From Candidatus Hermodarchaeota archaeon (GTDB lineage Archaea > Asgardarchaeota > Thorarchaeia > Thorarchaeales > Thorarchaeaceae): a stretch of DNA of 35,258 nucleotides. Made by a program: the position numbers and the translations under genes. Under the pieces are notes generated by a model, which saw only the letters and a program-made list of their open reading frames with translations, searched no databases and was not told the DNA's origin. Of this stretch, positions 22,553 to 28,771 are shown in pieces; the first letter of the stretch is position 1; the number at the start of each line of letters is the position of its first letter. The stretch is taken from the NCBI GenBank assembly GCA_048885865.1, contig JBHLLF010000027.1:1-35258 (forward strand), written 5' to 3'.

Positions 22553-23170
22553 ATGAGAACAAACGAACAGGTAGATGATATGCGTGAGGTCTGTGTCGAA
22601 GCCTGGAACATGCTTTTTGGTCGTGCCATTTTCGCCTTTCTCTTTCTACCTGATTCCTGGGTGACCGGATATCAAATGAACGATCCGCTGGTCACCAATA
22701 GATTCCTCTACAAAGACCGTGTATGGGTTGGTTCGGGAGAGATTGAATGTCTTATTTCACGAAGACACAGCACGGAGAAGCGTCCCAACCTTGATTTCAG
22801 AGCCAAGATTGTCGTGGAATTGAAGAAGGATACGCCTATTGCACCGAGCCCGGAAACACTTCTTGAACATCACTTCAACAAAGGTCGAGAAGTAGTGGAA
22901 CATGGTGAATTGCATAGTGGAGATCATATTGGCAGCTATATTCTCTGGGCTTCCAAGCGTCCTCGCTTCGGATTCTTTGGATCCCCCCGCCTCAATGCAC
23001 AATTGATAGGCTTTGTCCCGTGTGACGAAACTTCTCGACTCATAAAGGTCATTTGGACTTCACCTACTCCTGAGTTGATTATTGAAGAATCCGATGTGTT
23101 GATTTCGTCATTGAACTCTCTTTTATGTCATGGACACGACATAGAATCATACGAAGATGACCTTCTATAG
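22553..23170 (+). CDS. Hypothetical protein upstream of cstA
   Basis: 205-aa ORF (start may be ATG 22580) with beta-rich pattern, C-terminal CDET...LCHGH. Confidence 0.7.
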   Translation: MRTNEQVDDMREVCVEAWNMLFGRAIFAFLFLPDSWVTGYQMNDPLVTNRFLYKDRVWVGSGEIECLISRRHSTEKRPNLDFRAKIVVELKKDTPIAPSPETLLEHHFNKGREVVEHGELHSGDHIGSYILWASKRPRFGFFGSPRLNAQLIGFVPCDETSRLIKVIWTSPTPELIIEESDVLISSLNSLLCHGHDIESYEDDLL

Positions 23171-23302: not shown

Positions 23303-25084
23303 ATGCAAACACTTTCACCTGCAATATTTATCGGGGTCGGACTTGTAATCTACATATTTGGCTATTGGTTATACGCCAGATACGTAGATCGCAATGTTTG
23401 GGGCCCTGATGCAAAAGTAAAAACGCCTGCGCACATGTACATGGATGGTGTTGAGTTCTTCCCCACCTCAAAGAGTGTATTGTTCGGTTTCCAATTCAAA
23501 TCCATAGCAGCTCTCGGTCCTATTAGCGGTCCGTTTATAGCGCTAGTATTTGGCTGGTTGCCAGCATTCCTCTGGATAGTATTTGGCACATTCTTCATTG
23601 GTTGGATTCATGATTACACATCGGTCATGATAACAGTGCGCAGTGAGGGAGAATCCTTTGGTCCGATTGCCTATCGGATGGTAGGATCCCGAGCCCGCAA
23701 AGGTTTGATGGGCTTCATCATCTTCTATCTGATTCTAGTGATGGCTGTCTTCGCATACATCTGTGGAGCGTTCTTTAGAGCATTCCCACAGAGTATCATT
23801 CCGACAATCTTCGTGATTGCTGGAGGGGCATTTGCTGGAATCATGATGTACAGAAGAAAGATGAGCATTGTAATCTCCACTATTGTAGGCATGCTGTTCA
23901 TGGTTGTTGGCATCATATTGGGCATCTGGCTCTATGTAGAGGGCTATTTGGCCTGGGTGTCCACAACTCCGGTAGAATGGTGGATTATACTATCCCTGGT
24001 ACTAGTGTACTTTGGTGCTACATTAGCAATAACAGATTGGGCGCAACCAGTAAATTACGTTGCTTTCTGGCCATGTTTTGTAGCGGTGCTACTCATCATT
24101 GCCGGAGCTCTGCTTAGTCCACTTACACAGACAGTGGCAGAACCAGTTGCGGTTCAGATAGATCCGGTGATCACTCTGTTTACAGAGTCAAGTGGACCTA
24201 TTTGGCCAATTCTTTTCGTGGCAATTGCCTGTGGTGCTGTTTCTGGCTGGCATAGCCTAGTGGGAAGCAGTGCAACTGGAAAGCAAATCGCATCTGAGGT
24301 CGATGCTCTTCCTGTTGCTGGTGGCTCTATGTTCCTAGAAGGAGTCCTGGCAATGTGTGCGATGTCAGCATATGTTGTCATTCCAGAGGCACAAAGAGTA
24401 GGAGCATGGTTCGCCAACTTCCCGACCGGTGCAGCGATTCTCACTCAAGGTATGTTTGGTGGTGCTGCTGTATCCGGTATCGTGTTAGTTGCGTTCTTTG
24501 CTATGGTTCTAGAGCTCTATGCAATTACAGTGTTGCAGCTCATGCCTCGGTTCTTCCGTTTGGCTGCAGCTGACCTCGCTGGGCAATCGGTGATTGCTCC
24601 TCTGTTTCGAAATAAATGGATTGGGGCATTCATTGGAGTTCTAATTGCGTTCATCTTCGCGGCTACTGGCGCCTGGTATCACATATGGCTATTGTTCGGC
24701 GGCAGCAACCAGCTGCTTGCAGGACTTGCTCTGATGCTTGCGTCGGTGTATCTGGTACGTGCAAAGAAACCCACATACTATACGCTTGTCCCTGCTGTCT
24801 TCATGATTTTCACATGTGAGGCAGCACTCGTATGGGAAGCATGGGTGTTTGTCCAAGCCCTCATGAGTGCCACAGGCTATTATGCACAAGCCGGTAGTCT
24901 AGTAGACCTTCTAGCCCAAGGAGGCAATGCGTTGCCAGCAATCGCACTGACTTGGACTTTCCTCGGCATCGCAATAATATTGTTCTTCCTTGGATGGCTC
25001 GTCTTTGCCGACGCCTGGGCTGCATTAAGACGCGGTCCTGAGCAAACAGATGTATCAGTGGAAGTATCGACTCCAGTACAGTAG
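23303..25084 (+). CDS. cstA: Carbon starvation protein A (CstA) family transporter, atypical motif variant
   Basis: TPAHMYMDGVEFFPT, VLFGFQFKSIAALGPISGP, FGWLPAFLWI, GWIHDY, IACGAVSGWHSLVGS, WLLFGGSNQLLAG; many TM helices. Confidence 0.93.
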   Translation: MQTLSPAIFIGVGLVIYIFGYWLYARYVDRNVWGPDAKVKTPAHMYMDGVEFFPTSKSVLFGFQFKSIAALGPISGPFIALVFGWLPAFLWIVFGTFFIGWIHDYTSVMITVRSEGESFGPIAYRMVGSRARKGLMGFIIFYLILVMAVFAYICGAFFRAFPQSIIPTIFVIAGGAFAGIMMYRRKMSIVISTIVGMLFMVVGIILGIWLYVEGYLAWVSTTPVEWWIILSLVLVYFGATLAITDWAQPVNYVAFWPCFVAVLLIIAGALLSPLTQTVAEPVAVQIDPVITLFTESSGPIWPILFVAIACGAVSGWHSLVGSSATGKQIASEVDALPVAGGSMFLEGVLAMCAMSAYVVIPEAQRVGAWFANFPTGAAILTQGMFGGAAVSGIVLVAFFAMVLELYAITVLQLMPRFFRLAAADLAGQSVIAPLFRNKWIGAFIGVLIAFIFAATGAWYHIWLLFGGSNQLLAGLALMLASVYLVRAKKPTYYTLVPAVFMIFTCEAALVWEAWVFVQALMSATGYYAQAGSLVDLLAQGGNALPAIALTWTFLGIAIILFFLGWLVFADAWAALRRGPEQTDVSVEVSTPVQ

Positions 25085-25191: not shown

Positions 25192-25443
25192 TTGCATGTT
25201 TTCAAGAAGCTCAAAGAGTTTTGGGACGGAGTCTGGGCCGCTCAAAAGGAGAACCTTGCGCGCCCACTCATCAAGGCTACAACGTATCAGAATGATGCAA
25301 TGATTGTGACAATCTTTGGTGATTTCTTGGGATACCCATTTCAGTCAAATTTCTATTCTAGAAGATTATTCGTCTACTGGTTGGACAAGATTGATCCATG
25401 GCGCAAGCGAATACTAAAGGAAAAGGACTTCACTGATATGTAG
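25192..25443 (+). CDS. Small CstA/ArsA-associated protein (cory-CC-star-like), paralog 1
   Basis: DAMIVTIFGDFLGYPFQSNFYSRRLF..W....PWRKRILKEKDF; TTG start. Confidence 0.75.
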   Translation: MHVFKKLKEFWDGVWAAQKENLARPLIKATTYQNDAMIVTIFGDFLGYPFQSNFYSRRLFVYWLDKIDPWRKRILKEKDFTDM

Positions 25444-25566: not shown

Positions 25567-25827
25567 TTGCAAGTTATCAAGGCTATTAGAGAATTCCTAC
25601 TAGGAGTTTGGGAGTCGCAAAAAGCTAGTCTTGCTGGACCTTTAATTAAGACTAAGGTTCATCTCGATGATGCCATGATGCTCGTGATCTTGGGCGAGCT
25701 CCTGGGGTATCCATTTCAATCAACTTTCTATTCCAGGCTTTTCTTTGTACACCTATTAGAGGAGCTGACTCCTTGGAAGAGACGGCTTTTGAGAGAGCAA
25801 GATGTCATCCTTTGCATGGAAGATTGA
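25567..25827 (+). CDS. Small CstA/ArsA-associated protein, paralog 2
   Basis: DAMMLVILGELLGYPFQSTFYSRLFF...PWKRRLLREQD; closest to paralog 1; TTG start. Confidence 0.75.
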   Translation: MQVIKAIREFLLGVWESQKASLAGPLIKTKVHLDDAMMLVILGELLGYPFQSTFYSRLFFVHLLEELTPWKRRLLREQDVILCMED

Positions 25828-25892: not shown

Positions 25893-26180
25893 ATGAACGC
25901 ACACAAGGATGTTGAAGAACCTGAACAGGAACGAGGCGCAAAAGGGGCTGTGAAAGACTTCTTCTATGGTATGGCAATGCAAGGCATGGCTAGGTATGCC
26001 TTGAAGACACGAATGTACCTTGAACAGCTCTTCATGCTCATCACTCTGGGCGATATGCTAGGTATTCCCATCCTTCCTCCATACTATTCACTTAAGCTTC
26101 TACCCTATGCTGTGCCGAATATTAAGACTTGGAAGCGAACCCTGTTCAAGGAACGTGACTTCACGGACGCCCTCTTTTAG
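25893..26180 (+). CDS. Small CstA/ArsA-associated protein, paralog 3
   Basis: LEQLFMLITLGDMLGIPILPPYYSLKLLPY...WKR; matches the remembered LFMLL..LG.P.P..YY.L.LLP pattern of small genes found between cstA and arsA. Confidence 0.8.
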   Translation: MNAHKDVEEPEQERGAKGAVKDFFYGMAMQGMARYALKTRMYLEQLFMLITLGDMLGIPILPPYYSLKLLPYAVPNIKTWKRTLFKERDFTDALF

Positions 26181-26227: not shown

Positions 26228-27235
26228 TTGTCCAAAAAAATGAGTACCTTCTTCGAATCTAATCCGGACTTAAAAATCGCGGTCTTTGCCGGAAAGGGAG
26301 GTCTGGGTAAAACCACATGTAGTGCCGCATTAGCGTCTTGGCTTGCAAAGAAGAGACAACGAATCCTTTGCTTTAGTACTGACCCCCAAGCATCATTATC
26401 TGACATCTTTGAGAAAGATGTTTTTGGAAAGGGGTCTGTTACTCTAGCCAAGAATCTGCACGTTATGGAAATTGACGCAGACAAGCGCATCGCCGCTTTT
26501 CAGGAAGAGATTCGACAGCAAATCAAGGACATGTATGGCATTGATGAGATTCCCAAGGAGATTGATGAATACATAAATGCGGCAGGGGCCGAGCCAGCGA
26601 TGCATGAATCCGCCACTTATGATGCGATGGCTGGATTGCTCGCCTCTGATGAATATGGTTTTCATGTCTTTGATATGCCCCCCTTTGGTCATGGCATTCG
26701 AATCGTATCAATGGCTCGAATACTCGATGTCTGGGTAGAGAAGATGGAAGAAACGCGAAAGAAAGCTCAAGAATATGGCGAGTCAGCCTGGCAGATGCAG
26801 CGAAGAACCTCCGGCGCTGGGCAAGACGAGATGCTTGCTGAATTAATAGAGATCCGGAAGAAGCTAAGCTTCTTCCAGAGTATTCTTACTGATGCCAAAC
26901 GAACCGCTTTCTATATGGTTGTCACTCCTGAGAAGATGTCAATTCTAGACACCGAACGTGCATTGAAAATGTTTGAGCAAATGGACATCACACTAACCGG
27001 CGTCATTATCAACCAAGTGTATCCAAGAGAGCTGCTTAAGCGGGATGATCTTAGTCAGTTTCTTCGTGAGCGCATTGAAATGCAGCAGAGGTATATGGTT
27101 GAGATCAAAGAGAAACTAGGCAAGCGTGTATGCGCAGTAATCCCGATGTTTGACAGAGAGCCAAAGGGTCTCGAGATGATAGGCAAAGTTGCTGATGTTA
27201 TGATGAATTGGGATGGAAAGATAACGGAGGAGTAG
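26228..27235 (+). CDS. ArsA/GET3 family ATPase (catalytic Asp retained)
   Basis: GKGGLGKTT, STDPQASLSD, MEIDA, FDMPPFGH, VVTPEKMSILDTER, GVIINQ, EPKGL. Confidence 0.93.
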   Translation: MSKKMSTFFESNPDLKIAVFAGKGGLGKTTCSAALASWLAKKRQRILCFSTDPQASLSDIFEKDVFGKGSVTLAKNLHVMEIDADKRIAAFQEEIRQQIKDMYGIDEIPKEIDEYINAAGAEPAMHESATYDAMAGLLASDEYGFHVFDMPPFGHGIRIVSMARILDVWVEKMEETRKKAQEYGESAWQMQRRTSGAGQDEMLAELIEIRKKLSFFQSILTDAKRTAFYMVVTPEKMSILDTERALKMFEQMDITLTGVIINQVYPRELLKRDDLSQFLRERIEMQQRYMVEIKEKLGKRVCAVIPMFDREPKGLEMIGKVADVMMNWDGKITEE

Positions 27236-27239
27236 AAGA

Positions 27240-28250
27240 ATGACTGAATCCAAATGGGAAGAATTTGTAAAACAGCATCCGAAAATCAAGTTCTTCTTTA
27301 CCGGTGGTAAAGGTGGTGTAGGAAAGACCGTCAGTGCTGCGGCGATTGCCCAATACTTTGTTTCTCGAGGGAAAAAGACTCTTCTTGCCTCTTTGAATCC
27401 AGTGCATTCTCTGTCCACCCTATATGGTCAGGACATTTGGGGACGCGGCATCCAAAAGATCGAAGGAGCGGAGAACTTGTGGGGTGTTGAGGTTGATATC
27501 ACAAAAAAGATGACGACTTATAGAAGCCAGCTCACAGAACGCATTACCTCGTTTCTCAAGTGGGCTGATATTCCTGTGAATCCCGAGGCATTTATCGAAA
27601 TTGCTGTCACAAATCCGGCTTTTGAGGAATCTGCTCAATTTGACACAATGACTGACATTATGCTTGAACAGGGCGATGAATATGATGTAATTGTCTTTGA
27701 CTGCGCCGCAGTGGCTAACGCTATTCGGCTACTTGGTCTCAGTAAAATCTACGACCTTTGGCTCAGTCGTATGATTGAGAGCAGAAAGGAGGCTCTATCC
27801 CTCAGAGTGCAGCTCTCTTTCAGAAAAGATAAGATTGCGGAAGAGGTAAAGAGTGATCCGATGCTGGGTGACCTGCTACGTCAACATGAGAAGAACCGCA
27901 AGGCAAAGGAGATACTTAGCGATGTTGAGAGGACTGCATTCGTATTTGTGACAATTCCCCTAGCGCTTCCAATTGCTGTTGTGCAGCGGTTCATTAAGAT
28001 GGTTCAAGCATTCGATATCCCGGTTGGAGGAGTGTTTGTAAACAGAATTATCCCGAAGATGGCTGCTGATGAAGACGCAACTGAATACATGAAGAACAGC
28101 TATCTTCAGCAGTCTAGATATATGGATATGATTAGCGAGCAGCTCGGAGAGATGGTCAACGCCTATGTGCCTCTATACCCCTCTGAAGTAGCAGGTGTGG
28201 AGGGTATTGAGAGATTCTGTCAGGACATGCTTACTTTCAATCCTGAATGA
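27240..28250 (+). CDS. ArsA/GET3 family ATPase with degenerate switch motifs
   Basis: GGKGGVGKT, SLNPVHSLS (D to N), VIVFDCAAVAN, GVFVNR, EVAG; 4 nt after the previous gene. Confidence 0.92.
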   Translation: MTESKWEEFVKQHPKIKFFFTGGKGGVGKTVSAAAIAQYFVSRGKKTLLASLNPVHSLSTLYGQDIWGRGIQKIEGAENLWGVEVDITKKMTTYRSQLTERITSFLKWADIPVNPEAFIEIAVTNPAFEESAQFDTMTDIMLEQGDEYDVIVFDCAAVANAIRLLGLSKIYDLWLSRMIESRKEALSLRVQLSFRKDKIAEEVKSDPMLGDLLRQHEKNRKAKEILSDVERTAFVFVTIPLALPIAVVQRFIKMVQAFDIPVGGVFVNRIIPKMAADEDATEYMKNSYLQQSRYMDMISEQLGEMVNAYVPLYPSEVAGVEGIERFCQDMLTFNPE

Positions 28251-28411: not shown

Positions 28412-28771
28412 ATGGCAATTATGGTTGGACCCGAAGACATCCTGAGTATTGATATTCGCTATCGCGAGAAGGGTGATACTACTGATGGCTATGCAGTCGT
28501 CCGCCTTCGAGAGCATGTGGAGAATGCTAGTATCTTTCATTTCATGTTCTCGATGAGCAATGACGCCTTTTACAAGCAAGTATCAGAATTGAGTACGGTA
28601 TCCAAGAAATCTGGCTACCATCTGGACCTACGTGAGAAATCCAGATTCACGTTGGCTTTAGAGAAGATGATGGTAGGTGCCCTCGCAGGGACTGAGTATC
28701 AAAGCTATGGCTGTCCTTCTTGCCGAATGATTGATGCATTCATCTCATCTGAGCGGCATGTAATGCCATAG
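28412..28771 (+). CDS. Hypothetical protein with C-terminal CPSC motif
   Basis: 119-aa ATG ORF with TATA-like TTTAAA upstream. Confidence 0.65.
   Translation: MAIMVGPEDILSIDIRYREKGDTTDGYAVVRLREHVENASIFHFMFSMSNDAFYKQVSELSTVSKKSGYHLDLREKSRFTLALEKMMVGALAGTEYQSYGCPSCRMIDAFISSERHVMP

Follow-up and report, generated by a model that had tools for sequence, protein, structure and literature searches.

Get3/ArsA ATPases are textbook examples of symmetric or pseudo-symmetric dimers, and the substitution D57N is a standard laboratory trick by which Get3 is frozen in its ATP-bound state. An asymmetric arrangement is well known from heterodimeric ABC transporters, whose nucleotide-sandwich dimers contain one consensus and one degenerate, but conserved, ATP site. 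In Alkaliphilus metalliredigens, half-size ArsA1 and ArsA2 are reportedly encoded by adjacent genes, and their products are said to form a complex (work attributed to Fu, Rosen and Bhattacharjee, 2010); this split ArsA is said to serve arsenic resistance, with no natural change of the catalytic Asp to Asn having been reported. The adjacent Get3-like genes bagA and bagB of Mycobacterium tuberculosis (Rv3679/Rv3680, PDB 6bs3-6bs5) are likewise said to encode a heteromeric ATPase, without ars genes.

The gene cluster that is the subject of this study has been known since 2010, when Castillo and Saier (PMC2963123), in a purely bioinformatic work, described cstA-cstX(-cstY)-arsA clusters in 26 genomes (their clusters 14-18). 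In these, CstX has ~90 aa, CstY ~210 aa and the single-domain ArsA ~330 aa, and ars genes are lacking. Adjacent tandem ArsA genes were recorded in two organisms ("cluster 15"), and the D of the SxD motif was found to be replaceable only by N. On their proposal, ArsA would energise CstA through CstX as the linker, and the CstA-associated ArsAs "may function as homodimers" (PMC2963123).

In this study, a window (the whole stretch of DNA that was analysed) of 35,258 nucleotides from a Candidatus Hermodarchaeota archaeon was examined. A CstY-like gene, cstA, three cstX genes, two ArsA/Get3-family genes (designated A and B) and a gene for a 119-aa protein follow one another in this order:

22553-23170, plus strand: CstY-like protein of 205 aa, 5' of cstA; its position is kept in the Thor and Hermod loci and weakly in others
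23303-25084, plus strand: cstA, a CstA-family membrane transporter (PF02554, E=1.8e-99)
25192-25443, plus strand: divergent CstX paralogue with a weak CC_star_Cory match
25567-25827, plus strand: divergent CstX paralogue with a weak CC_star_Cory match
25893-26180, plus strand: CstX of 95 aa, adjoining A (DUF7990/PF25952 on its orthologues)
26228-27235, plus strand: A, ArsA/Get3-family ATPase of 335 aa with catalytic Asp52, STDPQASL and DMPPFGH
26381-26383, plus strand: codon of Asp52 of A, within STDPQASL
27240-28250, plus strand: B, ArsA/Get3-family ATPase of 336 aa with an intact P-loop, Asn at switch I and a remodelled switch II
27303-27329, plus strand: P-loop of B, GGKGGVGKT (residues 22-30), including signature Lys24 and Lys29
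27396-27398, plus strand: codon AAT of Asn53 of B, in the place of the catalytic Asp of switch I (D57 of yeast Get3)
27699-27719, plus strand: switch II of B, DCAAVAN (D154-N160), replacing DTAPTGH
28412-28771, plus strand: protein of 119 aa with a C-terminal CPSC and without a family match, just 3' of B

Profile searches place both ATPases in the TRC40/GET3/ArsA superfamily: B matches PF02374 with E=3.4e-56 and 191 bits (cut-off 24.3) and TIGR00345 with 210.5 bits (cut-off 135), and the corresponding values for A are E=4.2e-68 with 230 bits, and 219.5 bits. The AlphaFold model of B (pLDDT 81.6) has the Get3/ArsA fold, with an NTPase core and a helical subdomain, and the top PDB matches found with Foldseek are the archaeal Get3 structures 3ug6 and 3zq6 (E ~1e-23, TM-scores 0.69-0.83). 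Switch I of B reads SLNPVHSL, the catalytic Asp of (S/T)(T/S)DPA being replaced by Asn53, and its switch II, FDCAAVANAIRLLGL in context, carries D(C/T)AAVANA and departs from the family motif DTAPTGHT. The HMMER alignment of B to 3ug6 and 3zq6 puts N53 beneath the D of STDPAHSL and CAAVAN beneath TAPTGH. In yeast Get3 the equivalent D57 is the catalytic residue, and the D57N variant binds ATP without hydrolysing it (PMC12506534).

The upstream subunit A, the real start of which may be the ATG at 26240, has the deviant Walker A motif AGKGGLGKT, which is invariant among its orthologues. Its switch II is FDMPPFGHGIRIV in context, in which DMPPFGHG keeps both the Asp and the Gly-His. Only 4 nt separate the stop codon of A from the ATG with which B begins; 8 nt 5' of this ATG there is a GGAGGAG motif.

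The first-pass annotation had described B as a paralogue with an intact P-loop and signature Lys, SLNPVHSL with the Asn codon at 27396-27398 and DCAAVAN in place of DTAPTGH, lying downstream of a paralogue with STDP and DMPPFGH, and had pointed to the effect of D57N in yeast Get3; each of these readings agrees with the sequence or the literature. Its view of the two genes as a GET3/ArsA paralogue pair was upheld as regards the family and the Asn/Asp split, but they are not a lone Get3 pair: they form the ATPase core of a cstA-cstX-A-B module, and the real Get3 is encoded on another contig. This third family member (contig C4, L007:1378-2424), with STDPAHSL, DTAPTGHTLKLL and CVFC, is on its motifs the ordinary Get3 orthologue of the genome. 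Its ORF as listed starts ~30 codons before the likely start.

The module is the gene cluster of Castillo and Saier. The CstY-like protein fits their CstY of ~210 aa, and A and B are single-domain proteins of ~330 aa accompanied by cstA and a ~90-aa cstX; no arsB, acr3, arsC, arsD or arsR gene was found in the cluster within the window, where the neighbours are cstA and cstX. A and B thus constitute a CstA-CstX-associated ArsA pair. In the 2010 work, however, the Asn was tied neither to a fixed member of a pair nor to a loss of hydrolysis, and a literature search, which fell short of many subscription papers, found no paper in which the Asn is taken as the mark of a fixed, non-catalytic heterodimer subunit. 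What is new here is the reading of the Asn and of the pair.

We propose that A and B are the halves of an obligate, translationally coupled nucleotide-sandwich ATPase of the Get3/ArsA type. The catalytic site would be centred on A and would be built from the P-loop, Asp52 and switch II Gly-His of A together with the signature Lys contributed by B. The site on B would retain ATP binding, as the P-loop, Asp154 of Walker B, the base-contacting Asn268 and the A-loop are all invariant, and its hydrolysis would be very slow or nil, because the water-activating Asp (Asn53 in B) and the switch II Gly-His are missing. ATP in the B site would hold the dimer closed or primed, and a single hydrolysis event on A would power the conformational cycle, by a logic like that of fused ArsA (A1/A2) and of the degenerate-site ABC heterodimers; within the conserved CstA-CstX module, the pair would act as motor or switch. 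On the comparative evidence, an obligate A/B heterodimer in which the A-centred site alone turns over ATP and the B-centred site holds it is probable, and we infer a regulatory part for the latter.

The best functional analogy is offered by E. coli ArsA (1f48), in which, as proposed for A/B, two non-equivalent ArsA-type sites in one unit serve a secondary transporter (ArsB). In ArsA, unlike A/B, the halves are fused, switch I Asp and DTAP are present in both, and there are a metalloid-binding Cys site and an ars operon. B is not an ArsA pump of this kind, as it is a single domain and scores 92.8 bits against the ArsA equivalog model TIGR04291 (cut-off 650). The split ArsA1/ArsA2 of Alkaliphilus reportedly differs from A/B in belonging to an arsenic-resistance system. 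BagA and BagB are distant relatives without a CstA/CstX context; B reaches 45.6 and 31.5 bits against their NCBIfam models NF053622 and NF053621, about a tenth of the respective cut-offs (400 and 521). Get3/TRC40 shares its fold with B and provides the nearest solved structures (3ug6 and 3zq6), and B naturally bears the D57N-type change. Get3, however, is homodimeric and symmetric and has a CxxC zinc clasp at its dimer interface; no CxxC occurs in the sequence of A or of B. The heterodimeric ABC transporters have an unrelated ATPase fold and are an analogy only.

The gene order recurs in 80 loci of other genomes, the neighbourhoods of which were surveyed by ORF calling and phmmer. CstX is encoded directly 5' of A in 65 of 67 loci, and cstA lies within ~5 kb of the A/B pair in 28 of the 29 that have enough flank. 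CstX has 26 invariant columns from archaea to Bacillota. Three cstX genes occur here and in close relatives, where most lineages have a single well-conserved one, accompanied at most by one that is divergent. The extra two, which are far more divergent than the one adjoining A, are kept in the closest Thorarchaeota loci. The position of the 119-aa gene is conserved solely in the Thorarchaeota and Hermodarchaeia loci. A Pfam scan of the small proteins of the window gave no match with the models scanned, which did not include PF25952. CstX proteins match NCBIfam NF041419 (the Corynebacterium "cory-CC-star") with E=2e-7 to 3e-3, far under the cut-off; this similarity hints at a distant link to small proteins from actinobacteria, a group in which the Get3-like BagAB pair is found as well.

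The likeliest role of the pair, and one that is quite conceivable by analogy with the action of ArsA on ArsB, is that A/B acts on the secondary transporter CstA via the small adaptor CstX. More tentatively, the one-site machine, with its ATP-locked B subunit and CstX, might turn the proton-driven carrier CstA into an ATP-gated or ATP-driven one. In a complex prediction of A, B, CstX and two ATP, CstX scored 0.57, against 0.42 when B was replaced as a control; the prediction yielded no interface and gives no answer either way. A basal pair of an A-like and a B-like gene (L094:2080-4057; SIDPQASL, and STNPIHSL with DTAPVAL) lies among gas-vesicle-like genes, with faint GvpG, GvpO and HSP20 neighbours and neither CstX nor CstA in view. 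Apparently an asymmetric pair can serve another module, so the tie to CstA is not absolute.

A different role, which we rank below action on CstA via CstX and regard as rather unlikely, is that the pair serves CstX or CstA as a dedicated chaperone of the Get3 type, for targeting or assembly; Get3 proper takes up the transmembrane segments of tail-anchored proteins in a composite hydrophobic groove. It is favoured by the nearest relatives in sequence and fold, which are archaeal Get3 tail-anchor chaperones, by the hydrophobic segment of CstX ~20-50 residues from the C-terminus and by the Met-rich composition of A (5.3% Met; B, 3.7%). The CstX segment, however, reaches a maximum Kyte-Doolittle value of only 1.54 (19-residue window) and contains an invariant Gly-Asp and Pro-Pro-Tyr-Tyr, unlike a plain membrane anchor. 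The 26 invariant positions of CstX suggest a specific adaptor, and a canonical Get3 is already present in the genome. This alternative bears on the role of the module, and not on the asymmetry of the ATPase.

The two subunits could also work unpaired, A as a homodimer with ordinary ATPase activity and B as an ATP-binding, non-hydrolysing homodimer that serves as a switch or scaffold in the same pathway. Such separate homodimers, suggested for these proteins by Castillo and Saier (PMC2963123), would be in keeping with Get3/TRC40 and most deviant Walker A ATPases, which are homodimeric (including the PDB matches of B), and with the lack of a natural A-B fusion. They are nevertheless improbable in view of how strictly the genes are paired. 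An A-type gene stands directly 5' of B in all 78 loci that have upstream DNA, an invariant 1:1 adjacency in which the junctions overlap or measure 4-12 nt (projected distance from A stop to B start mostly -4 to +12 nt). Mean pairwise identity amounts to 0.634 in A and 0.648 in B, and B has the higher value in 63% of genome pairs; the divergence of the two is tightly correlated (r=0.925). In maximum-likelihood trees A is monophyletic with an SH-aLRT support of 100 and B with 99; the two clades are sisters (99), as expected from one duplication, and their sub-clades are congruent. The two lineages have evolved in parallel. Moreover, B keeps the trans-acting signature Lys, which would be catalytically useless between two dead sites.

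Regarding fusions, no clean natural A-B fusion was found among the longer proteins searched. The only candidate, P0121 (693 aa, from a metagenome assembly), contains Arg/Pro/Gly-rich, out-of-frame stretches and was rejected as an artefact of assembly or of frameshifts. Double-domain proteins of the P0122/P0172 type, considered as B-A fusions, are alike in motifs but belong to a different clade in the tree, so they are no Rosetta stone for A/B. This fused ArsA-like family of ~640-660 aa (P0122, P0171, P0172, P0178, P0184, P0187 and P0193) has a degenerate switch II, D(T/M/L)AAGAH, in the N-terminal half, to which P0172 adds Asn in switch I (SVNPAHSL), and keeps STDPQ(R/H)SL and DTAPTGH in the C-terminal half. 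As the family is not derived from A/B in the tree, this looks like a convergent, independent case of one-sided degeneration.

The conservation of B was assessed in two sets of sequences, the 120 top-ranking homologues in the database (56-95% identity) and the best 80 of 172 loci encoding a relative in a scan of one genome per species. Asn occupies the switch I position in 119 of the 120 homologues, and switch I reads SLNP[VI]HSL in 79 of the 80 loci, a strongly positive outcome of the check on orthologues that the first-pass annotation had put forward. Switch II is D[TC]AAVAN in 77 of these loci (DTAAVAN in 50, DCAAVAN in 27) and DTAAIAN in one, and the remaining two are misreads of the motif scan, one of which (L024) reads DTAAVAN by eye. 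The P-loop is invariant in 120 of 120 homologues, and also in 27 diverse orthologues. Further residues invariant in the 120 homologues are S51, L52, P54, H56, S57, T124-F128, E130-A132 and A156-A161, and TNPAFEESA is essentially invariant. A orthologues, for their part, have FSTDPQAS in 68 of 68 cases and DMPPFGH in 64 of 65.

The 120 homologues come from Thorarchaeota, Hermodarchaeia, Bathyarchaeia, Baldrarchaeia, Thermofilum, Geothermarchaeota and one Anaerolineae MAG. The loci represent Asgard archaea (Thor, Hermod, Heimdall, Sif and Baldr), Thermoproteota (Bathy, Kor, Geothermarchaeota, Pyrodictiaceae and Nitrososphaeria), Thermoplasmatota (Thermoplasmata and Methanomassiliicoccales) and bacteria (Anaerolineae, Thermodesulfobacteriota, Thermaerobacter, Symbiobacterium and other Bacillota). 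An Asn-bearing B is thus spread over at least three archaeal and four bacterial phyla, and its distribution within the Asgard phylum is patchy (14 of 201 sampled genomes, or 6 of 85 if those of high quality are counted). The sole B orthologue with Asp (SLDPVHSI; L024:5944-6978, a Geothermarchaeales MAG) keeps DTAAVAN and the B-type helix motif described below. Both this B and its partner A form long branches, and the Asp looks like a secondary reversion.

A profile search of wider scope, covering 1.84 billion cluster representatives, yielded more divergent sequences that branch at the base of the B clade. Of these, P0154 and P0161 have STNPVHSL and DTAPTAN, and P0155 has STNPIHSL and DTAPVAL; in all three the Asn is already present and the switch II Gly-His is lost. 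The contigs of P0154 and P0155 each show, directly 5' of the B-like gene, an A-like one with the Asp retained. Since basal B-like proteins already bear Asn next to Asp-bearing partners, the asymmetry goes back to the duplication and was retained afterwards; it is ancient and selected, and not a product of decay.

The two families were also compared column by column, using the 74 alignment columns conserved at >=90% in both. In 41 of these A and B are identical. Among them are the entire P-loop, the Walker B Phe-Asp, a conserved Arg and a Trp that follow switch II, the Asn in the VN motif that binds the base, and the C-terminal P..E..G loop (A-loop); B retains every nucleotide-binding element that is common with A. 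The other 33 are fixed but different. They include the switch I Asp/Asn, each of the six positions that follow the Walker B Asp, the Glu/Asn in (E/N)PA(M/F)xES and a helix stretch that reads PE.M.I.DT.R in A and PL.L.I.VV.R in B. In this stretch A resembles canonical archaeal Get3 (PEEMSILESERA in 3ug6), and B does not. The corresponding helix of Get3 presumably contacts the Get3 receptors; no literature support was found for the Get3 helix motif lost in B (PE..S..ETER) as a receptor-binding patch. The column comparison revealed no position with conserved opposite charges between A and B. From these patterns it looks as if B must still bind nucleotide and donate its signature Lys, and as if it has lost both the catalytic base and the sensor of the gamma-phosphate and exposes a different surface.

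The same invariance could be read in another way, namely that SLNPVHSL, TNPAFEESA and D(T/C)AAVAN form a remodelled functional site with which B still hydrolyses. Such a site might be slow or activated by the partner, or might use another general base or another nucleotide. The altered motifs are conserved more strictly than a passive site would predict, the invariant His56, Glu130 and Asn160 could join in catalysis, and one lineage (L024) tolerates Asp. We nonetheless consider an active B site hardly likely. Degenerate yet conserved sites are the rule among other asymmetric ATPase dimers, and in B the switch II Gly-His is gone as well. In addition, the change from Asp to Asn at this very position kills hydrolysis in Get3 while ATP binding is kept (PMC12506534).

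That the Asn is strain-specific or a sequencing error, as the first-pass annotation had allowed for, or that B is a decaying pseudogene, is excluded, because, of 80 independent genomes, 79 share the Asn, as do 119 of 120 protein clusters, and the open frame of B is as conserved as that of its partner A, the sole point in favour being that AAT is one base from GAT. Taken together, the conservation of the Asn, the invariant pairing, the parallel trees and the basal pairs make an asymmetric A/B heterodimer, with one putatively catalytic and one putatively non-hydrolysing ATP site, well supported by comparative evidence; the enzyme/pseudoenzyme heterodimer put forward in the first-pass annotation is thereby supported in part.

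One subunit of this pair combines a D57N-type change and a rebuilt switch II, which nature has fixed under strong selection in archaea and bacteria. The A/B pair is a natural system in which to ask what a single hydrolysis event per cycle achieves in the Get3/ArsA fold, and its asymmetry is a handle on the function of the little-explored CstA-CstX-ATPase module. The heterodimer that we infer would correct the published suggestion of homodimers. As the pair is not Asgard-specific and is patchy there (14 of 201 genomes), it has little bearing on the origin of eukaryotes. If the reading of CstA as the target is true, the module would be a second case, after ArsA/ArsB, of a secondary carrier captured by a soluble ATPase, extending from Asgard archaea to Bacillota.
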